Assembly (NCBI GenBank): GCA_030770535.1
Contig: JASVEC010000025.1
Coordinates: forward strand, 1 to 64,000
Direction of reading: 5' to 3'
Length of the DNA stretch: 64,000 nucleotides
Source: Batkoa obscura
Lineage: Eukaryota
Shown here: positions 828 through 48,143 of the stretch, one piece after another
Layout of the letters: the number at the start of each line of letters is the position of its first letter
How positions within the stretch are numbered: position 1 is the first letter of the stretch
Translations under genes and position numbers: made by a program
Notes under the pieces: generated by a model
Told to the model about the DNA's origin: nothing
Database searches by the model: none
The model's input: the letters and a program-made list of their open reading frames with translations, nothing else

Positions 828-2217
828 TTAAGTTTTAATAACTTAGCTAAAGTTAGGCTAAATTTACTCTCAAATGAACGGTTTATTAGGTTGTAAAAGA
901 GCTGCAATAGCCGTAAAAATGGAGAAAAAAATTATTAGGCACAAAACGGGTGCATAACATTTTCAGTTTTTAAAAAATGGCTATTGGGCCAAGCTTTATC
1001 TAATTTAAGTCTTAAGGGGTCTAAATCCAGAATGGTAACATTTAAAACTAATATTGTTTGTTTATTTATTTTTAACAAAAGTAATCTACTTAAAATGTAA
1101 CCCTCAATTAAAAATTAACTGACGCAGTATACTTTATATATTTCTTGCTTTCTTGATATTTTTAATATCAATTTAGAGGAATTATCCTTCTACGTTATTT
1201 TTTATGAGTTTTATATAGTATATTTGACTTTAACCTTTGATATTGAGTTAATATTAATCAATATATTAAATATCTCGGACAATTTTTTGTAAAATATTGA
1301 CTAGAGGTTATATATTGACAGAATAAATCCAACTGTGTTTTGCATACAAAGCTTATTTCCATAATTATAGTTTAAGTTTATGTCCTCATTATAAGTGTTT
1401 TATTTGATCGTATAAATTTGCTATAATTAAGATTTGTATACTTTAATCAATCCTGATTTAATTTTACTTCAAGTGGAAGAATTTTAGAAACTAATTTAAC
1501 TTACCTTAAAATCAATATCATTAAACAAGTCTTTATCAATAGTTTTACCTATATGCTCTAACGATTCATTCAATGTTAGATTATAAAAGCTATTTAGGAA
1601 TTAAAGATTAAAATTTAAAATTATGGTCATTACAGTTGTTAGTCCTGTAGTTTTAATTGAAAGCTAATATCGTTAAAAAAATAGAAACTCGTTTATTTTA
1701 AAAAGAATAATAGCATATTTAGTATGGGTATGAAGTTGTTAATCGTGTTTTTTTGTATTTTTTTATAAATGTCCAAGACACTATTAAGATGCTTCAGCTA
1801 TATTTACAGAATATAGCCCATATACTAAATAAATAAAAATTTCGCAAATTAGAATTAAAACATTATAATACTAATTGATTAGATACTTTATATAAAGCGA
1901 GCATGATGAGAACTACTATAATATCAATTAAATAATATAATTTAAATAATTAAGAAGCGATTAGTTTCAAAATATAAAACAAAAAGCAAATAAATTAAAA
2001 TCAAGCTAAAAGATGGAGAAATATTTGGACACTCCAAAGTTCACATTCGAACTTTTGGGTGCATTTTATTTAATATATTAGATTAAATACTAAATTTATA
2101 ATAAACATTGAAAAACAGTACTATAAATACTCGAAAAGAACTATTGAAATAGATATCAAAAAACTAATAACTTTTATTTAATATCAGATAATAAATACAC
2201 TATAATATAATCACAAA

Positions 2218-2733
2218 ATGAACAAACTCATCATTAGTCTTACTATCCTCTCTTTTATCACTGCTGCTCCTACTTTAGTTAAACGTGAAGCTGAAGGTCT
2301 TGGTTTAGGAGTAGGCTTAGGCTTAGGACGTAAAGGACATGGATCTGGATCTGGATCTGGATCTGGTCATGGATCTGGATCATCTGGCTATGGTTCAGGC
2401 TCAGGTTCAGGTTCATCTGGTCATGGATCAAATTCAGGCCTTGGATTAGGAGTAGGTTTAGGCTTAGGTTTAGGCTTAGGAGGTAATGGACATACATCTG
2501 GTTCTGGATCTGGTTCTGGATCTGGTTCTGGATCTGGATCGTCAGGCTCAGGATCAGGTTATGGATCTAGATCATCAGGGTCTGGATATGGCTTAGGCTC
2601 TTCAGGTTACGGCTCAGGATCAGGATCAGGTCATGGTGGTCTTGGTCTAGGATTAGGTTTAGGAGCTGGTGTTGGTCTTGGAAAAGGAGGCCTTGGATTA
2701 GGTCTTGGGGCTGGTGTAGGACTTGACCTTTAA
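2218..2733 (+). CDS. Secreted Gly/Ser-rich (Gly-X)n protein with Kex2 site
   Basis: Signal peptide, LVKR-EAE, alternating GL/GV and GS tracts; intronless; TATAAATA about 95 nt upstream. Confidence 0.92.
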   Translation: MNKLIISLTILSFITAAPTLVKREAEGLGLGVGLGLGRKGHGSGSGSGSGHGSGSSGYGSGSGSGSSGHGSNSGLGLGVGLGLGLGLGGNGHTSGSGSGSGSGSGSGSSGSGSGYGSRSSGSGYGLGSSGYGSGSGSGHGGLGLGLGLGAGVGLGKGGLGLGLGAGVGLDL

Positions 2734-3081
2734 TTATTATTTTTCAAAACATCATTAATCTTCAACTAATAAGTATCTTAAATTTACTAAAATAAAATAA
2801 TATACATTTTATATCATTTATTATTTATTGCTTTTAAATATACTAGTTATTTTTATACATTGAGATGTGTAGTATAGGTTTATACATATAAAAGCTGCTA
2901 AAACTGTAAAAATATTCATCAAGTTTTTATTTTCGGTTATTATCATTTTTTATCCTAGAATCTAACTTCTACAAATTTAAGGGCTCTTTAATTTTTTAAT
3001 ATTGATTAGTTATATTTTATTTTTTTATCTCTGTCTTTCTGAATCTTAAAAATATTTTACACCATATTTTCAATAGGACAT

Positions 3082-3173
3082 GGGGTGTTTTTTGGCTTCA
3101 TCACTTTTTCCATCTAAGTACTATTTGAGTGGAAAAATTGTTAGCAAAATTCTTAAATATAAAATAAATCCCC
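3082..3173 (+). mobile_element. MITE family A, copy 2
   Basis: GGGGTGTTTTTTGG...AAATCCCC; flanks ACAT/ATAT. Confidence 0.85.
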
Positions 3174-4163
3174 ATATCTTAATTTTTATTTCTATTTTAT
3201 CAACTTTTTACTTTTTCATTTTTTCATATATACCTATTACAAAGAAGTAAACAGCGACTTTATCTCAAGTAAAAGGAAATGTTTACAAATGTACATAGTA
3301 AATAGATAGATCATAACGACTGGTAATAAAGATAAAGAACCTAGCCCTCGCCAGCCAGATGCCTTTTTTGATTTTAGCTTCTCAGGATTTTAAAAAAAGT
3401 ATATTCGGGCTTTATCACAAGCGTACCATTAGCTAAGTAATAAAACTAGGAAGTTTATATTTTTAATTCGTATTTTTAAAGCTACATATATATGGCATTT
3501 TCTATGAAACAGTATAATTTTAAAAAAACCATTTTCATCTGTTTTCAGTAGTCAATATTTAATAATTAAACTTGTTTAAAAACTTACTAATATTTTTCTA
3601 ATATATTCAGTTTTTAAAGTATCAGGTTTTATTTTACCAAATTTCTAGTTCATTACTAATGGATAAATGAAGATGTACTAAAAGTGATTAAGTACAAAAG
3701 CAGTGAATTAAAAAGTGAAAAAAACATTGAGAGATTTTTAATACACAAAAATAAAATTTAAAAATTTATCTATACAAAACTTAACTTTGTTTTAGAAATT
3801 ATAAATATAACATTTTTGAATGAATAGTTTTTAAATTTGACTTTTTTCTGAAATTATGCAGTTTTGCATGAAATCTAATTTTTTCGATGGTAGCTAAAAA
3901 AGGCTATTTTGAACCATGAGAACTAAAAGGTTAGTGTACTAAAATTTAGCTAAAAAGGCTGGAAGCAAAATAATCTTCATTACTCCAAATTCACACTCAA
4001 ACTTTGGGGTTTTATAAGCAATATTTAATCTAATTCTATTTTTATAATAAACATTGAAAAACAGTACTATAAATACTCGAAAAGAACTATTGAAATAGAT
4101 ATCAAAAAACTAATAACTTTTATTTAATATCAGATAATAAATACACTATAATATAATCACAAA

Positions 4164-4817
4164 ATGAACAAACTCATCATTAGTCTTACTATCCTCTCTT
4201 TTATCACTGCTGCTCCTACTTTAGTTAAACGTGAAGCTGAAGGTCTTGGTTTAGGAGTAGGTTTAGGCTTAGGCTTAGGCTTAGGACGTAAAGGACATGG
4301 ATCTGGATCTGGATCTGGATCTGGATCTGGTCATGGATCTGGATCATCTGGCTATGGTTCAGGCTCAGGTTCAGGTTCATCTGGTCATGGATCAAATTCA
4401 GGCCTTGGATTAGGAGTAGGTTTAGGCTTAGGTTTAGGCTTAGGAGGTAATGGACATGGATCTGGATCTGGATCTGGTCATGGATCTGGATCATCTGGCT
4501 ATGGTTCAGGCTCAGGTTCAGGTTCATCTGGTCATGGATCAAATTCAGGCCTTGGATTAGGAGTAGGTTTAGGCTTAGGTTTAGGCTTAGGAGGTAATGG
4601 ACATACATCTGGTTACGGTTCTGGTTCTGGTTCTGGTTCATCAGGATCAGGATCGGGTTACGGATCAGGCTCTTCAGGCTCTTCAGGCTCTTCAGGCTAC
4701 GGTTCAGGTTCAGGTCGTGGTGGCCTTGATTTAGGTTTAGGCTTAGGAGCCGGTGTAGGTATTGGAAAGGGTGGTGTTGGATTAGGTGTTGGAACTGGTC
4801 TAGGGCTTAACCTTTAA
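4164..4817 (+). CDS. Secreted Gly/Ser-rich (Gly-X)n protein with internal ~49-aa duplication
   Basis: Same leader as 2218; GHGSG...GLGGN module present twice. Confidence 0.92.
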   Translation: MNKLIISLTILSFITAAPTLVKREAEGLGLGVGLGLGLGLGRKGHGSGSGSGSGSGHGSGSSGYGSGSGSGSSGHGSNSGLGLGVGLGLGLGLGGNGHGSGSGSGHGSGSSGYGSGSGSGSSGHGSNSGLGLGVGLGLGLGLGGNGHTSGYGSGSGSGSSGSGSGYGSGSSGSSGSSGYGSGSGRGGLDLGLGLGAGVGIGKGGVGLGVGTGLGLNL

Positions 4818-5293
4818 TTATTACTATTTAAATCATCAATAATCTTTAACTAATCTTTATCTTAAATTCACTAAAATAAAACAAAATATATTTTAAAAGA
4901 TTATATATTTTATACTTTTAGTACAATAATTTTATTACACTCTTTATGTCTACTGTGTGATTTATTATCAACAAATTGGTCAAATAATGTGAATTTCAAG
5001 CGCCAACGTTTACTGAATATATATTCAGTTATTTATGAGTGTCAATACTTTCAGTATATCTTTATATTTTTATTTTGAAAATATTACGCTCATTACTTTT
5101 GAATCCTTATCATTTTTGTTATAGTCCTTTAAGTTATAATTTATAATATCATAACCAAGGAATGTAGAGTTTTAAAGTCCTTTAAAATCGAGAACTTAAT
5201 ATGAGCATGTTTAAATTGGAGAGCCTATGTTTTTTCATATTACATAAAAAAACAATGTATCACCCATCTTTAGAAATGAAACGAACTGTATAT

Positions 5294-5391
5294 GGGGATG
5301 TACTTTTTTGTTTAAAAATTTTACCGGCAATCTTTCCGCTCAAACAACGCTTAAAGAATAAAAAAAGTAATGAAACCAAAAAAACACCCCT
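5294..5391 (-). mobile_element. MITE family A, copy 3
   Basis: GGGGATGTAC...AAAACACCCCT; flanks ATAT/ATAT. Confidence 0.88.
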
Positions 5392-6051
5392 ATATCATGG
5401 TAATTCTTATCAGCTATATCATAAAATTGTGATTTTTATAAAATAACAGCTTCTTAAACTATTGTTTTGTTTTTAAATAAACCCTAGACTAAAAACTTTA
5501 AGCTACATAATACATTTTAATAAAACTAGCTACTTAACTGTATTTTCCTTCACCCTCTATTATCAAACCTTAATTGTTCTAGTGGTTTTTACGGGATTCA
5601 TAGCAGCTTCACAGTCCTCCTTAATTATCACTTTCTCTTTGCATAGTTGTTAATGCTTTGGATTGAAAACTTCTACTTTTAGTAGCTAAATGGTGCAACT
5701 TTTTGTTTATCGCTTTCTGAAAAAGTAAGACTATATTGAAAAACTTACGTGCCTCCCAGAATAATCTTATTATTATAACATCCGAGAAATGCTAACTTAT
5801 TCTACTTCTCTCAGGCACGATAATTAAAACATTTGAAGTTATTTAAACATTAAGAAAAGTAACTACAGTAAGTATATAAAGTTAATTTAAGTTCAATTTG
5901 TAATGTGTTGCAATAAAAAATGATTTTAGCACTTAAATGTAAACTTTAAATAATTTTTACAATAAGTTTGAAGGTAGTTTATTATAAATAAGATGATTGA
6001 CTGAAGTGTGATCAAGTAAAATTAAAGTCCAACACTAACACCTAAATCAAC

Positions 6052-6474
6052 TCAATATCCGTACCCTTTATCGTATCCTGAGCCATATCCTGAGTTATAT
6101 CCCGGTTTACTACCAGTACTTACTCCTACACCAGCGCCTACTCCTAATAATGGATTTCCACCTAAACCTACTCCTACACCAGCGCCTACTCCTAATAACG
6201 GCTTACCACCTAAACCTAAACCTATTCCAGCTCCTACTCCTACTCCTACTCCTCCACTGCCATTTGATCCTGAACCATGGCTTGGATTATATCCTGAACC
6301 ATATCCTGGGTTTGAGCCATATCCTGGGTTTGAGCCATATCCTGGTTTCCCTCCTAAGCCTAAGCCTAAACCTAAACCTAAACCTAATCCAAGGGTATTA
6401 GCTTCACGTTTGTTCAAAGTTGGAGCAGCGGTAATAAAAGAAGTAATAGCAAGACTAATGATGAATTTATTCAT
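6052..6474 (-). CDS. Secreted Gly-rich protein with PGYGSN repeats
   Basis: Signal peptide, NKR-EA, (GL/GV)n tracts, PGYGSN repeats. Confidence 0.9.
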   Translation of the reverse strand: MNKFIISLAITSFITAAPTLNKREANTLGLGLGLGLGLGLGGKPGYGSNPGYGSNPGYGSGYNPSHGSGSNGSGGVGVGVGAGIGLGLGGKPLLGVGAGVGVGLGGNPLLGVGAGVGVSTGSKPGYNSGYGSGYDKGYGY

Positions 6475-6698
6475 TTTAAAGTATAATTTATGTTTAATAT
6501 AATATAATATAATATAAATGTGTTTGTATTTTGTTTTTTTTTGATCGATTTATCTACATATTTATATCTTTTAATATACCTAATAAAGCCAGTAGCATAG
6601 TTTTTTAGCTTTTTATTTTTAGTTTTAGCTTTTAAGCAACTTTTAGGATCTCAAGCCATTGTCTAGTTTTGACTACTGAGTCGTAAATTTAACTGTCT

Positions 6699-6791
6699 GG
6701 GGCTGTTTTTTTGGTTTTGTCACTTCCCATTTTTTAAGCACTATTGAGCAGGAAAATGTTAGCTAATTCTTAAACAAAAAGAAACATCTTC
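6699..6791 (+). mobile_element. MITE family A, copy 4 (degenerate)
   Basis: GGGGCTGTTTTTTTGG...AAACATCTTC; flanks GTCT/ATCT. Confidence 0.8.
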
Positions 6792-7096
6792 ATCTATTTT
6801 TTATTTGGCACTATGTGCTATGTTAGATGAATTTTATCACGATAATGTTTCTATAAATTTTATTTCTGTATATTCTTAAATATCTTATAATACAATCTTT
6901 AATAAATGTAATATATCACTTTCTTTGTAGTTACATTATATCTTAGATCAAATCAAAGCCCAACATCATTTTTCAATATGAGTTCAATATTTTTGCGTTT
7001 CATAGCTTAATTTACCTGGTTTAGAGGCTAATTTGATTTAATAACTATATTCATTTTCAGCTAAAAATAAAATATTATTGAACTCTTTTTGTATAT

Positions 7097-7194
7097 GGTG
7101 ATGTTTTTTTTCATTTAAGAATTTTACTAACAATCTTCCCACTTAAATAGCGCTTAAAAAATGGAAAAAGTGATAAAATTAAAAATACATCCTC
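7097..7194 (-). mobile_element. MITE family A, copy 5
   Basis: Consensus match; flanks ATAT/ATAT. Confidence 0.88.
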
Positions 7195-7783
7195 ATATGT
7201 TGATAATCATAAAAATTCTATTTGACTATTATTTTTTTATATTAGACAATTCCTCTTTTTGGCATATGTTATTTAACAATCTATGAAGATGTTTCTAATC
7301 AGTTTCTTATGTTAATTTAATATTGATTATCTGATTTTTAAGCTAAATTTCACACCTAAAAAAAGCCCATTTGATTGAGTGAAGTATTCGCATCAAATAC
7401 ATCTATTACAGCCTTTTTTCAAAACTTTTAACTGTTCATTTAAGAGTATTGTTTATCCTATAATTCACCAAATAGAAGCAACAGTTTTAAAAAAAATCAG
7501 CTATACAGATTATTTACTACAAAAATACTCACTAAATGGTTCGCAAAAGAGCTGCAACAGCTGGATCCAAAAGAGATTTTCAAAGCCTTTGGTAACTATT
7601 CTACGGCTGTTTAAGGTCCAACATTGGATATTTAACATAAACAACAGTAGATAAAATATATCAAGATCATAAGGGGCATTAGCTTTTTAAAAAGGTTAGT
7701 AATTTGCATATTCAATTTGTAGTTTTAAAAAAGTTTTAAAGAATCCAATTGAATCTTTATTATCTTTTGAAATTTGACGTTAA

Positions 7784-8027
7784 CCACTTGAGTACCGTGG
7801 ACGAATATTGTTCGCCAATCTTGGATTAAAATTCAATTATGATGAACATTGCTCCAATATGATTTTAAATTGAAATAAAATCTTGATAAACATTACTCCC
7901 ATGGTTGGAATTAAATTAGCCCTTTGAATATTGAGTTTTAAAAAAAGCTGGGTCAATTGGCGTAAAATCTATTAGAAATTATAATCCAACCAAACAGGAT
8001 TTTTTGAGGTGTCTGGCACTCAAAAGG
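7784..8027. mobile_element. piggyBac-type MITE family B, copy 1
   Basis: TTAA-CCACTTGAGTACC...GGCACTCAAAAGG-TTAA; related inverted copy at 57486-57664. Confidence 0.8.
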
Positions 8028-8677
8028 TTAACAAAACACTTAACACTATCGTCTTGAAAATTATAGTTAAAAAGCAGATTATTAAAAAACAAATGTTAGA
8101 TTAGGATTATCAGCTTCAAGATAAAATGTTAAAACAAAAATAGTTACAAAATTGATTTTGTATTCTATTAAATTTTATATTATTATTTAAAAAGATTAAG
8201 TTATAATACAATTATCATTTCGAATTAATCAGCTTTCATTTTCAATAAACTTTATTACTCTTTTTAATACTAAATGGAAAGTAATCAAGTTTTCGAATTT
8301 CAATCATTATAATATTAAAACTTTAACCTAAATTCCTTTGAAACTTTTTATTAATACTTAGTTGCTATTAAAACTATAACACTTGTATTACATTGGAAAT
8401 TTCGGATCAAATAAAATAATGAATAGCTGGATATACTATTTTGTGTTTTACAATAAACATACTATTCACCTTCAATTAGAATATAGAAAGCGCTATACTT
8501 TTATATACTAACTATCAAAAAATTAAGCTTCAAAATTGAACGCTAGAATTATAGGGATAATTTTTAGATATATTATATAACCTTAACTATTTAAATATAA
8601 CAATCATAAAAAATAGATAGATTTAACTATATCTTTATTTGAAATAGAATAACTAATTGAGTTGTAATTAGATAAAA

Positions 8678-9133
8678 TTAAAGTCGGATATTAAGTAAAT
8701 TCCCTTTGTTGTTGCTTGTACTGTATCCTGAGTTAGAACCATATCCTGAGTTATGTCCTGAGTTATGTCCTGAGTTATGTCCTGAGTTATATCCTGAGTT
8801 ATGTCCTGATTCATATTCTGGTTCACCTCCTAAACCTAAACCTAAGCTTGTACCTAAGTCTACTCCTACTCCTACTCCAAGAATATTACTTTCACGCTTA
8901 ACTAGAGCAGGATAACCTGGGTTTGATCCTGGGTTTGATCCTGGGCCATACCCTGGTTTTGAACCATGCCCTGAATTGGAATCATATTCTGGTTCACCTC
9001 CTAAACCTAAACCTAAGCCTAAATCTACACCAACTCCTACACCTAAACCGAGGGTATTAGCTTCATGCTTATTTGAAGTTGGAGCAGCAGCGACAAAAGA
9101 GAGGATAGTAAGACTAATGATGAGTTTGTTCAT
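8678..9133 (-). CDS. Secreted Gly-rich protein with two modules and an internal Kex2 site
   Basis: Signal peptide; NKH-EA-NTLGLGVGV module and LVKR-ES-NILGVGVGV module; SGHN repeats. Confidence 0.9.
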   Translation of the reverse strand: MNKLIISLTILSFVAAAPTSNKHEANTLGLGVGVGVDLGLGLGLGGEPEYDSNSGHGSKPGYGPGSNPGSNPGYPALVKRESNILGVGVGVDLGTSLGLGLGGEPEYESGHNSGYNSGHNSGHNSGHNSGYGSNSGYSTSNNKGNLLNIRL

Positions 9134-11194
9134 TTTTAAGATATGATATTAATTTAGTATGAAATAGATTTGTTTTTAATTTAATAGTTAGTTGGTAGAT
9201 TTATCACAGTATTTATATCTTTCATTATACTTAATAAAATTAAGCGATATAATTTTTTTAATTTTTTAGTTTTATTCTTAGTTTCTAATTATCCTTTAAG
9301 GCCCCAAGTTATATTTATTTTTATATACTAAATTGTATATTTAAATACCCTTTATTCCATTTATTATGGATGATATATTAAATCTCTTTCATCATTCATA
9401 TGTCTTTATAGATTTCATTTCTATATACCATTATACCACTTTTATCATATTATTTAAATGAGACTAATAGTTCAATAGTTTTATCTTCATATCATATCAT
9501 AAATATATTTAAAGTACAGCTTTATCATTCTATTTTAACATTTATTTATTTTATAATGTTTCATAGATAATTTTAACTTGCTTTAGAGGACAAGTTAATT
9601 TATTAACTAACAATTATTTTCATTCAAAAAATAAACCATTATTGAAATTTTATATGTATATTTTAATAACAAACAATATTTTAATTTCAAATATTGTTAG
9701 TTTTATATTAGATAATTACTATATTTGACTATTTCTATCAATATTGATTTTTTAACCCTTAATGCTATTTTTTTTAACGGTTTTCTAAGCTTATTTTAAC
9801 TGAACATTAGTACTTTTGTTTTATATTAACATTTGCATTGAAATCTTTTGTTTTAATTAGCATTCATATTTAATAAAATTCAAAGATTCTATTTTAGAAC
9901 CTCTAATAACTTTTTTAAAGATAATGAATGCATCAACGCTAGAAAGGGTATTAAATTTTTTTTTAAAATGGTAACTAAATTTATGTGTTATGAAAAGGTT
10001 CTAAAATATTCAAAGAATTTGCTTAAATCTTAATTAACTTTTTTATTTGATATTAATCAAACACTTGATGTTATTAATTTGAAAATTCTATTGAAATAAG
10101 TCCATTATCAAAAGAAACAGATTAAGCAAAGTTATCAATTTAAAAGATATAAAAGTTCAACAATGAGAGTATTAAAGTTGATCTTATTTTAAATGAAAAT
10201 TTCAGTTATTGTTTATAAACATGATATTATTTTAATATAAATAATAGTTTCCAATTAAGAGGTTTTTTTATTAAAATTGAATTTTATGATTTTTTTCAAA
10301 TTCAAGTTCCAACTTTTAATACCTTTTTAACAATTGATAATTTTCAAACAAAACATATCATCCAGGTGAATTATAGTAAAATAATTATTAAGTCATTAAT
10401 ATTAAAAAAAGTAATATTTATTTTCTACTAAGATATTTTAATAGAATAATAGAATCGATAACTCATAATACTATTGTCATCAAAAAGTTTAGTATCTAAG
10501 ATAAATGCTTTTGAAGCAAATAATATATTTAATAAACAGTCTTTAAATATAGTCACTATTTTTTATAGAAAAATTCTAAATGTCAACAACTTCGAAATTT
10601 TATTTTTACAAATTAAATTATTAAAATGTAATCCGGTTTATTATTCTGTTAATTCTGAATTCTAAATTGAGTGATTTTTAGGATCAAATGAATATTATGG
10701 TTCAATAAAAAAACTACGTATATTTCAAATTAGCTGTTTATTTTAAATAAAAATTTAATTTAAAATTTTAAACTTGCTACTTATTTATAAAAGCTAAAGA
10801 CCAAAAGAGAAACCGAGTATTAAAAAATGATTATCTAAATAAATTATTGAAATACATATAATAGTAACTGTTTAATTATATTATCTAGCTATTGAATTTG
10901 AATTTGAATTTTAAAATATTCTCTTTTTTGAAACTTCCTTTGAATTCAATCCCAAAATTTTTGATTCAAAAGGTTCCCATAATGTTTTAATCCAAATCAA
11001 TCAATTAGTCTGAATAGAGCTAAATCTTATTTAATTGGCTAAGATTTGTAACTAAAAGCTTAGTTCTATCCCACAACGAAAATATAAAAATATATTTCTT
11101 AGCTAAGGTTAATATGTTTATATTTAATCTAAGTTTATTCGCTCCTAAATCAAGTATATAATGTAAGTTAATTTCTTTACCTATGTTTCCATAT

Positions 11195-11272
11195 GTGATG
11201 ATACCTATTCAACCATAGAACTAATTGTATGATCATTAATGATTTCAACCTTTTACATGCATCACCAACTGA
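11195..11272 (+). ncRNA. Box C/D snoRNA, snR55/U33-like (18S Um1269 equivalent)
   Basis: Box C GTGATGA, box D CTGA; guide CATGCATCACCA pairs with 18S UGGUGGUGCAUG (one G-U); D+5 rule selects the U. Confidence 0.85.
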
Positions 11273-11420
11273 AGATTATTATGATAATCAAATACTTTAT
11301 TGATCATTTTACTAATTTAATTTTATTAGATGTTAAACACAAAGACATTATTATTGCACTGTTATAATAACTAAATGGTAAGTAATATGTTTCATTTAAA
11401 TTCAGAATAGAATGTTGGCG

Positions 11421-11504
11421 TTGATGAATGCAATTAACCATAGAACTAAGAATCTAATGAGAGCAATCACTAATGATTACAATTCAATGCATGCACCACT
11501 CTGA
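11421..11504 (+). ncRNA. Box C/D snoRNA, snR40/U32-like (18S Gm1271 equivalent)
   Basis: Box C TTGATGA, box D CTGA, terminal stem AATAGAAT..TGGC/GCCA.ATTCTATT; guide CATGCACCAC pairs with 18S GUGGUGCAUG. Confidence 0.87.
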
Positions 11505-11604
11505 GCCAGATTCTATTTATTATAAATAATTTTATTTTAAACATATATTAATATTCTTTTATTAGATGTAAGTAATAATTTCAATTCTTATTCTATTCAT
11601 CAAA

Positions 11605-11696
11605 ATGATGAAAAGATTTGAGCACTGGGCTCTGAATAGTTCTGAAGATAAGCTCTATATTCCTATCCAAAGACATTCAAACCGGATAGTTACTGA
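11605..11696 (+). ncRNA. Box C/D snoRNA, snR76-like (25S Cm2197 equivalent)
   Basis: ATGATGA, D' CTGA 11632, C' CTGAAGA, D CTGA; D' guide GAGCACTGGGC pairs with LSU GCCCAGUGCUC; GACATTCA complements adjacent UGAAUGUC. Confidence 0.88.
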
Positions 11697-11822
11697 TATT
11701 TTTATTAATATCATTAATTTTTATTGAGAATATAATTCTAATTTATACTCATTAGATTGTAAATTATAATTCAAATGTAATAAGGTAGGTATTTATTTTG
11801 ATTATTAATTTTTTAATTTTGC

Positions 11823-11897
11823 GTGATGATTGATTTTCTGTCAGTTCTGCTTCTGATGCAAGTATGAAGCTAATAAATCTCTTACCAAATTATCTGA
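11823..11897 (+). ncRNA. Box C/D snoRNA, snR61/U38-like (25S Am1133 equivalent)
   Basis: GTGATGA, D' CTGA 11853, D CTGA; guide CAGTTCTGCTT pairs with LSU AAGCAGAACUG; CTTACCAAA complements adjacent UUUGGUAAG. Confidence 0.88.
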
Positions 11898-12043
11898 TGA
11901 ATTGAATTTTTATTAACTGTTATCTTTGAATAATTTATTAATTTTCTATTATAGATATCCTAATGTATAGTTTGAAACTAAACATATAATGACTCATATA
12001 ATTCTTTAATGTAAGTATTTAGTTTAATTCTATATTAACTCAA

Positions 12044-12105
12044 ATGATGATCAATTCCGTGTTTCACCTGAAACTTTAATGATTACTAACCCCTTTTCAA
12101 CCTGA
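12044..12105 (+). ncRNA. Box C/D snoRNA with two guides (LSU UGAAACACGGA region; possible second LSU site)
   Basis: ATGATGA, D' CTGA 12068, C' ATGATTA, D CTGA; D' guide TCCGTGTTTCA; D guide CCCCTTTTCAA. Confidence 0.85.
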
Positions 12106-12476
12106 TTTTATTTAATCAATATAATTATCTAAGATAATGTATACTAATTATTGTTATTAGGTTCTACTATTGGTATACCACTAACCGACAACCTTAATAA
12201 TTGTTTAACTAGTTTATTAAAAATAAATATATTTATTGCTTATTTTTGTATATATCTATTTTCATAATTGAATCCTTACATATCTTTAATATTTCGTTTG
12301 TAAAAATAAAACCTGTTTTTTCACAGCTTTAATGATAGTGCAAAAATTCTACTCAAATGTAGCAACTGTTTAGAGGTTATTTCTAACTATTTTCATTTTT
12401 CAAGCGTAAAAATTAAACAGATTATTAACTAAATTAATAAAAAACATCTCATCAGCATGCTTGACATTCAACATAT

Positions 12477-12571: not shown

Positions 12572-13506
12572 ATATAATAAAATTGTATTAAAAATTGGTT
12601 CTAAAATATGCATAGAACTAAAAGATTTGTTGCAAATAAAAACTTATTTTTTGAATCAAAAAACTAGTTACTTACAGGAAAATGTAATACGCTAGAAGGT
12701 AGTATTAAGTTTATAGATTTTAAAAAAATAGGCAGCTATCTCTCTCTGTCCTCTAAAATAAGCTTATATTGTAAATTCAACTTGGATAAAGATAAATAGG
12801 ATTATTAATAACGTAGGCATTCATCAGGGGTTAAATCAAAAGCTAAATTAATAAGTTTGCATTTATTATTTACATAAGATAAAATTACTTTTGTGAGACT
12901 ATTTTTAAAAGTTAGTACACCTAATTTAAAGTCTTTATGGTTTTTTTTACTAAACTCAAAGCTTGGCCATGTAAATTTTTTTCTTTCCCCTCTTTTTTAT
13001 TAGATAATTTTTTTAGCATAACTTCAATAATGTATTTTAAATATGGTGAAAAGAGTTAGAAGATCATTAAAAGGAAAAAATTGGGATTCTGATTATTAGT
13101 AACAATAATGGTAGCAGTAATAGTAATAGTAATAGTAGTGTTTTTTTTTTAAAACTAAACTTTGATTTCAGTAATATAATAAAATGGGTGCATAATTCAA
13201 TCAGTAAAATTAAAAAATTGACAACTTTACGATTTTTTAAAAACTTGGCGTTGGGATTACTTGACTACAAAATTTAAAAAAAGTCAAAAATTCATCCCTA
13301 AATTAATATGATAACTACTCCAACTAACAGTTGTAATTTGGGGTGGATTCTATTTAGCAAAAGTATCCATATACAAAATTACTACTATTACATATCAATA
13401 ACCCATCCCATAAATACTCCAACTCAACTCTCATAATAATTATCAAAAAATTATTACTATTATTATTATCTAATACTTAACAACACCTACAATACAGTCT
13501 ATTAAA

Positions 13507-13902
13507 ATGAATAAATTAATCATCAATCTTACTATTCTCTCTTTTATTACCGCTGCTTCTACTTTAGTTAAACGTGAAGCTGACGGACTTGATTTAGGTT
13601 TAGGTTTGGATTTGGGCTTAGGAGGTGGCAAGCATGGCTCAGGTTCAGGTTCAGGTTCAGGTTCAGGTTATGACGTTGGATCAGGGTCAGGATCTAGTTA
13701 CGGTTCGGGCTCAGGTTCAGAATCTAGTTACGGCTCAGGATCTAACTACGGCTCGGGCTTGGGCTCAGGATCTAGCTATACTCCAGATTCTGGCCATAGT
13801 TCAGGCCATGGATATAGTCATGGCGGTTTAGGCTTAGGAGTAGGAGCTGGAAAAGGAGGACTTGGATTAGGACTTGCAGCCGGTGTTGGACTTGATCTCT
13901 AA
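13507..13902 (+). CDS. Secreted Gly/Ser-rich (Gly-X)n protein
   Basis: Same leader family (LVKR-EAD), GS tracts, C-terminal GVGLDL as in the 2218 gene. Confidence 0.9.
   Translation: MNKLIINLTILSFITAASTLVKREADGLDLGLGLDLGLGGGKHGSGSGSGSGSGYDVGSGSGSSYGSGSGSESSYGSGSNYGSGLGSGSSYTPDSGHSSGHGYSHGGLGLGVGAGKGGLGLGLAAGVGLDL

Positions 13903-46625: not shown

Positions 46626-48143
<1,518 letters not shown>

Follow-up and report, generated by a model that had tools for sequence, protein, structure and literature searches.

Box C/D snoRNAs Lie at Similar Distances from the Predicted Branch Points in the Introns of a Non-Coding Host Gene of Batkoa obscura

The 64,000-nucleotide stretch of Batkoa obscura DNA analyzed here (contig JASVEC010000025.1, positions 1 to 64,000; hereafter, the window) contains a cluster of five box C/D snoRNAs. 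Five units occupy positions 11163–12160 of the + strand; in each of them, a 5' splice site is followed by box C, box D, a branch-like motif, and TAG. The cluster begins at 11163, upstream of position 11269, from which the first-pass annotation of this DNA had counted it. The locus is a spliced and polyadenylated host RNA without a long ORF, and each of its introns carries one C/D snoRNA (Table 1). The joined exons are 250 nt in length when exon 1 is taken from position 11130, and their longest ATG-started frame has 14 codons. A candidate TATA box is located upstream of exon 1 (11083–11089).

Table 1. Features of the snoRNA host gene. Intron rows run from the 5' GT to the end of the 3' AG; snoRNA rows run from box C to the end of box D.
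Feature	Coordinates	Strand	Basis and remarks
Exon 1, non-coding host RNA	11130–11162	+	Contig starts at 11134–11161; GTAAGT at 11163; 5' end approximate
Intron 1, 167 nt, hosts snoRNA 1	11163–11329	+	Predicted branch A at 11315; read from motifs alone
snoRNA 1, snR55/SNORD33-clan guide	11195–11272	+	SNORD33 22.8 bits, below the cut-off of 44; D guide is that of the Rfam-called snR55 in metagenome locus L006
Exon 2, 48 nt	11330–11377	+	Joints leaving 11377
Intron 2, 188 nt, hosts snoRNA 2	11378–11565	+	Predicted branch A at 11551; GT..AG joint 11377->11566
snoRNA 2, paralog of snoRNA 1	11421–11504	+	Core similarity (z = 5.6) and alignment; SNORD33 24.1 bits, below the cut-off
Exon 3, 2-nt microexon	11566–11567	+	Joint 11377->11756 with both letters kept; X1 and X2, one study
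Intron 3, 188 nt, hosts snoRNA 3	11568–11755	+	Predicted branch A at 11741; GT..AG joint
snoRNA 3, snoR118-like guide, clan CL00071	11605–11696	+	snoR118 25.1 bits, E = 0.0029, below the cut-off of 44
Exon 4, 29 nt	11756–11784	+	Joints at either end
Intron 4, 170 nt, hosts snR61	11785–11954	+	Predicted branch A at 11941; GT..AG joint 11784->11955 in X1, X2, and X4, two studies
snoRNA 4, snR61	11823–11897	+	Rfam RF00476, 55.1 bits, above the cut-off of 45
Exon 5, 56 nt	11955–12010	+	Joints at either end
Intron 5, 150 nt, hosts snoRNA 5	12011–12160	+	Predicted branch A at 12147; GT..AG joint 12010->12161 in X1 and X2
snoRNA 5, U18-like D' guide, weak assignment	12044–12105	+	snoU18 20.2 bits, E = 0.18, below the cut-off of 47
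Exon 6	12161–12242	+	AATAAA at 12222–12227; poly(A) site after 12242; A-tails in X2, X3, and X4, two studies

Splice joints of four of the five introns (2, 3, 4, and 5) were seen in public contigs of close relatives, which differ from the window by substitutions, and the sites used in them are the predicted ones. The contigs belong to four of the seven listed public runs (X1–X4); none is recorded as RNA, and we take these runs for RNA as a guess that only the joints and A-tails back. Intron 1 has no joint among those listed from the relatives' contigs, despite its strong motifs; its 3' site agrees with a contig that stops at 11328 and with a step in the depth of run X1. The coverage gap over intron 2 was not counted as evidence by itself. 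At the other end of the gene, the genomic DNA past position 12242 is T-rich. Two other 5' sites for intron 4, which precede box C by 46 and 64 nt, were ruled out, since the joint uses 11785; an AG that follows box D of snoRNA 2 by 5 nt was likewise ruled out as a 3' site by the joint.

In contigs of the X1, X2, and X3 runs, intron 2 is spliced out and intron 3 is retained, which hints at ordered splicing. Intron 3 is also the deepest-covered intron in all four runs among the contigs listed, contig depth being a poor measure.

Boxes C and D are present in all five snoRNAs, within the 60–95 nt spacing expected of this class, and the internal D'/C' boxes were read by eye. Only snR61 scores above its Rfam cut-off; the other four are below theirs, and their guides are common to other loci or models. 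Clan CL00071, to which the guide of snoRNA 3 was assigned, presumably includes snR76/SNORD88. When comparing snoRNA 2 with snoRNA 1, a shift of box D by 2 nt towards the guide can be noted; therefore, snoRNA 2 is predicted to methylate a position 2 nt away from the site of snoRNA 1. The methylation sites of snR40 and snR55 are also 2 nt apart, and the position is likely the snR40/SNORD32-type site.

Besides their related D guides, snoRNAs 1 and 2 (11195–11504) have a common 14-nt stretch ending at the D' position. By analogy with the elements reported in PMC3116282, this stretch may provide additional pairing with rRNA. A contig of the X4 run matches 41 nt of snoRNA 1 (11239–11279) and is unlike the sequence on either side; it probably represents another copy elsewhere in that organism. 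A scan for C-to-D pairs on both strands of the window revealed nine pairs, namely these five and four others, one of them inside the RUVBL1 frame. The four were not accepted as snoRNAs, and the window thus offers no independent spacing case. No rRNA was found in the 64-kb window.

The gene content resembles a variant of fungal snoRNA cluster II (snR57–snR55–snR61), with the order snR55-like RNA, its paralog, snR76-like RNA, snR61, and U18-like RNA. The snoRNAs of cluster II reside in introns of non-coding hosts whose exons are tiny (Luo et al. 2013, PMC3596301; for Candida, PMC5033589). The window shares with it the non-coding spliced host, the snR55-like RNA upstream of snR61, and the tiny internal exons; exons of one base and of zero length are described in the cluster II papers, and the window has a 2-nt exon. 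Unlike cluster II as presented there, the window has no snR57-type RNA and additionally contains the snR55 paralog, the snoR118/snR76-like RNA, and the U18-like RNA. For snR57, no match was found in the 10900–12400 region at E up to 10, and the + strand of this region contains only the five C/D pairs. The loss of snR57 is known in Euascomycetes (PMC3596301), and given this precedent, the window can be considered a cluster II variant without the first member. As far as the accessible text of Luo et al. goes, Rhizopus is the only organism outside Dikarya in its species list.

The snR61 guide was also searched for in metagenomes, which yielded at least 117 loci with 119 pattern matches. All of the 20 loci scanned match snR61. 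An intronic snR55-like RNA lies upstream of an intronic snR61 in the window, and the same order was found in 11 of the 20 metagenome loci scanned. The U18-like guide of snoRNA 5 recurs downstream of an snR61-type RNA in two unrelated loci, L021 (1396–1467) and L066, as in the window; snR55–snR61–U18 may be an old linkage. The 3' spacer of the U18-like RNA in L021 is much longer than that in the window. In addition, snR61-type tandem duplicates, each in its own apparent intron, were observed in loci L019 (205–563) and L073 (249–611).

The ten spacer distances recorded in the first-pass annotation were recomputed from the box and splice-site coordinates and proved exact. From the end of box D to the 3' AG, they are 57, 61, 59, 57, and 55 nt for snoRNAs 1–5; from the 5' GT to box C, whose position is taken as that of the base preceding TGATGA, they are 32, 43, 37, 38, and 33 nt. 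The standard deviation is 2.3 for the 3' spacers vs. 4.4 for the 5' spacers, and the former are not significantly tighter (F test, p = 0.12; n = 5, one host gene in one genome). If each snoRNA is placed uniformly in its own intron, a range of the 3' spacers of 6 nt or less appears in 91 of 200,000 draws (p = 0.0005).

Equal lengths might have been inherited from duplicated introns or have arisen by chance in a set of five. All five snoRNAs do belong to one host gene, and snoRNAs 1 and 2 are paralogs; however, the 3' spacers show no similarity to each other on alignment (all ten pairs have a z of at most 1.1), the z values of the 5' spacers are at most 2.1, and recent duplication of introns therefore fails to explain the equal lengths. 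Moreover, the spacing is common to four unrelated guides, and chance has to contend both with the result of the uniform placement and with the peak in the independent loci described below. We consider this explanation highly improbable.

The spacers of the relatives differ from those of the window by 26 substitutions and no indels, while the exons differ by ten substitutions and six indels; three of the six exon indels are in one patch, poorly fitting contigs were excluded, and both the 5' and 3' spacers are indel-free. This is a weak hint at a length constraint of either kind.

The snoRNA-bearing introns can be compared with the ordinary introns of the window. The RUVBL1 introns are 48, 50, and 49 nt in length, and each of the snoRNA 3' spacers alone (55–61 nt) exceeds them; thus, the introns of the host gene cannot be regarded as minimal introns that received a snoRNA. 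The median length of ordinary introns is 63 nt over all 33 candidates and 55 nt in the 21 candidates that were retained after the exclusion of ten introns longer than 110 nt and two doubtful ones. In these 21 introns, the median distance is 40 nt from the 5' site to the branch and 14 nt from the branch to the AG.

With one fixed rule applied throughout, the predicted branch A of the five snoRNA introns is 14, 14, 14, 13, and 13 nt from the intron end, and the distance from box D to it is 43, 47, 45, 44, and 42 nt (SD 1.9, n = 5). In all five introns, box D would therefore be 42–47 nt from the branch point; the branch points are predicted, and a TTAAT-type motif is easily found in AT-rich DNA. 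Since the branch spacing and the short ordinary gap between branch and AG together make up the distance from box D to the AG, the branch point, rather than the AG, is likely the anchor.

In mammals, intronic C/D snoRNAs are preferentially located approximately 70 nt upstream of the 3' AG, and the mature snoRNA 3' ends lie a few bases beyond box D. The spacing from snoRNA to branch point was described as 40–50 nt, a range bounded at both ends (PMC10234308), or about 50 nt (PMC5519232, PMC8162545). The mammalian splicing-coupled assembly (Hirose and Steitz 2001 and Hirose 2006, via these papers and PMC10208982) and the window share several features: each intron has a single C/D snoRNA, the guides are of the rRNA type, most terminal stems are weak, and the 42–47 nt to the (here predicted) branch A fall within the 40–50 nt range; measured from the mature 3' end, the window is at or slightly below the lower edge of this range. 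The distance of 55–61 nt from box D to the AG, below the mammalian 70 nt, is likely explained mostly by the short stretch of 13–14 nt between branch and AG. Terminal stems are weak in four of the five snoRNAs (−2.3 to −5.1 kcal/mol), and only snoRNA 2 has a strong one (−14.3 kcal/mol). According to mammalian reviews, long terminal stems uncouple the snoRNA from splicing.

The metagenome loci allow the spacing to be followed outside this host gene. They are fungal-type by inference and were treated as independent despite possible kinship. Among the matches listed, 71 have the second guide and box D, 68 have enough flank, 50 are distinct, and 47 of these have a branch motif. A stricter filter resulted in 36 clean loci, L026 and L048 with two candidate branch sites each being dropped as well; this filter cuts outliers, and the standard deviations obtained with it are low estimates. 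The branch motif is 40–65 nt after box D in 40 of the 50 distinct loci listed, whereas shuffled sequences gave 6.3 on average and 15 at most in 1000 shuffles. It is at 5–30 nt in one of the 50 loci and at 75–100 nt in five. Over the 47 loci listed, box D precedes the branch by a median of 56 nt and the AG by a median of 67 nt. For the snR55-like neighbour upstream, the median from box D to the branch is 54 nt (22 loci among those listed).

The window is approximately 10 nt below the listed loci in the distance from box D to the branch (p = 0.006; the five window values represent one genome), and only two of the 36 clean loci among the matches listed have 47 nt or less. Over these 36 loci, the distance spans 41–67 nt. 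Its standard deviation is 5.3 vs. 7.2 for the 5' spacer (Levene p = 0.03), and it is not significantly tighter than the distance from box D to the AG (p = 0.17). The 5' spacer and the distance from box D to the branch co-vary (Spearman 0.67, n = 36 loci listed, kinship ignored). The window snR61, whose 5' spacer is 38 nt, would be expected to have 54 ± 4 nt from the regression over the same loci; its value is 44 nt.

These data bear on the earlier proposal of an equivalent but shorter molecular ruler. The positional rule itself is supported, and the window spacing is indeed shorter than that of most other snR61 loci (44 nt vs. a median of 56 nt among the loci listed). It is mostly not shorter than that of mammals when the branch point is used for measuring (42–47 nt vs. 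40–50 or about 50 nt). A dedicated ruler remains hypothetical: spacer lengths differ from locus to locus and change together with the 5' spacer, and the pattern is in print for Neurospora.

Probably, selection keeps the spacing because snoRNP assembly is linked to the spliceosome and takes place at a set distance upstream of the branch point. The observations that support this reading are the boxes and their distances, the splice joints seen for introns 2–5, the poly(A) end, and the matching peak in other snR61 loci. The host would be transcribed and spliced, the snoRNP proteins would be loaded while the spliceosome holds the intron, and each lariat would then be debranched and trimmed, freeing the snoRNA. 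The footprint of Aquarius/IBP160 is located 33–40 nt upstream of the branch point (PMC10234308, PMC10208982). This factor is the most likely candidate for the coupling; its footprint would adjoin box D here, and loading would favour a box D just past it.

Some data count against a ruler. The distance is not fixed among the loci listed (41–67 nt) and grows with the 5' spacer, as compaction would give. Most expressed human C/D snoRNAs are at least 100 nt from the branch point, and distance ranks only 23rd among 34 predictors (PMC10234308). Aquarius is present in fission yeast and absent from budding yeast (PMC10208982), yet a position effect or preferred distances for intronic snoRNAs in budding yeast were reported, judging by the title of the publication.

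The main alternative, possible rather than probable as the cause of the spacing, is a steric floor combined with compaction: the snoRNP has to keep out of the area that the spliceosome covers around the branch point and the 5' splice site, and a genome-wide pressure towards short introns reduces the two spacers to this limit, so that the spacing is narrow without any measuring factor. The human distances, the absence of Aquarius in budding yeast, and the co-variation of the two spacers over the loci listed favour this reading. So do the shortness of ordinary introns in the window, the similarity of the 42–47 nt between box D and the branch to the ordinary median of 40 nt between 5' site and branch, and the fact that a branch motif at less than 30 nt occurs in just one of the 50 loci listed. 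Shared scaling, however, is not the whole account, as the value of the window snR61 is approximately 10 nt lower than the regression gives. In addition, the mammalian range is described with bounds on both sides (PMC10234308), and long outliers are few (the five loci at 75–100 nt).

Another explanation is that the spacer length serves the splicing of the host or release by a nuclease, for example, through an RNase III site, and not snoRNP assembly. Co-hosted snoRNAs are processed by RNase III in fission yeast, and the contigs retaining intron 3 after the removal of intron 2 suggest ordered splicing. Here, however, a strong flanking stem was found only at snoRNA 2, and every snoRNA has its own spliced intron, which makes this explanation very unlikely.

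Returning to assembly coupled to the spliceosome, a bolder version of it can be put forward tentatively, and we rather doubt it at present. The branch-anchored snoRNP ruler could be ancient and tuned by lineage; in this fungus, it would be shorter by approximately 10 nt than in most other snR61 loci (44 vs. 56 nt), with box D abutting the Aquarius footprint at the physical minimum of the hand-over between spliceosome and snoRNP. If this is true, differences among fungi would amount to a natural experiment on what sets the distance.

The locus is a real and well-supported example of an established rule in a lineage new to it; its length departs modestly from the rule, and it represents no new mechanism. 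Preferred distances to both splice sites are already known in Neurospora crassa (Liu et al. 2009, PMC2780460), where the distance to the 3' splice site is Drosophila-like and UHG/gas5-like hosts are present. The 5' spacers of Neurospora are 41–60 nt, while those of the window are 32–43 nt. For Plasmodium, spacers above 100 nt were described (PMC2656528). The Neurospora paper measures to the splice site, and the word "branch" is absent from its text as accessible. In the literature on snoRNA and Conidiobolus, which included few subscription papers, no account of this locus was found by title or abstract. A fungus-wide survey of the distance between snoRNA and branch point was not found either in the literature covered, which comprised few subscription papers and no supplementary tables.

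The locus thus extends the known rule of snoRNA positioning to an early-diverging fungal lineage. The generality of this rule is questioned by human genome-wide data (PMC10234308), yet the peak in the snR61 loci listed is sharp. Comparison of fungal loci is a cheap handle for distinguishing a distance set by a factor such as Aquarius from a floor under compact introns. The spacing also provides a rule of thumb for locating intronic snoRNAs in fungal genomes.

As for the surroundings of the cluster, the RUVBL1 gene is located approximately 35 kb from it (46626–48143) and is 99% identical to RUVBL1 of the entomophthoralean fungus Neoconidiobolus thromboides. RUVBL1 is a subunit of R2TP and is counted among the C/D snoRNP assembly factors; its proximity to the snoRNA cluster is likely a coincidence. 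The snoRNA host is flanked on both strands (2206–9148 and 13474–13902) by genes for small Gly/Ser-rich repeat proteins, at least five of them, whose starts resemble signal peptides. Possibly, this family represents cell-wall or spore-coat proteins.
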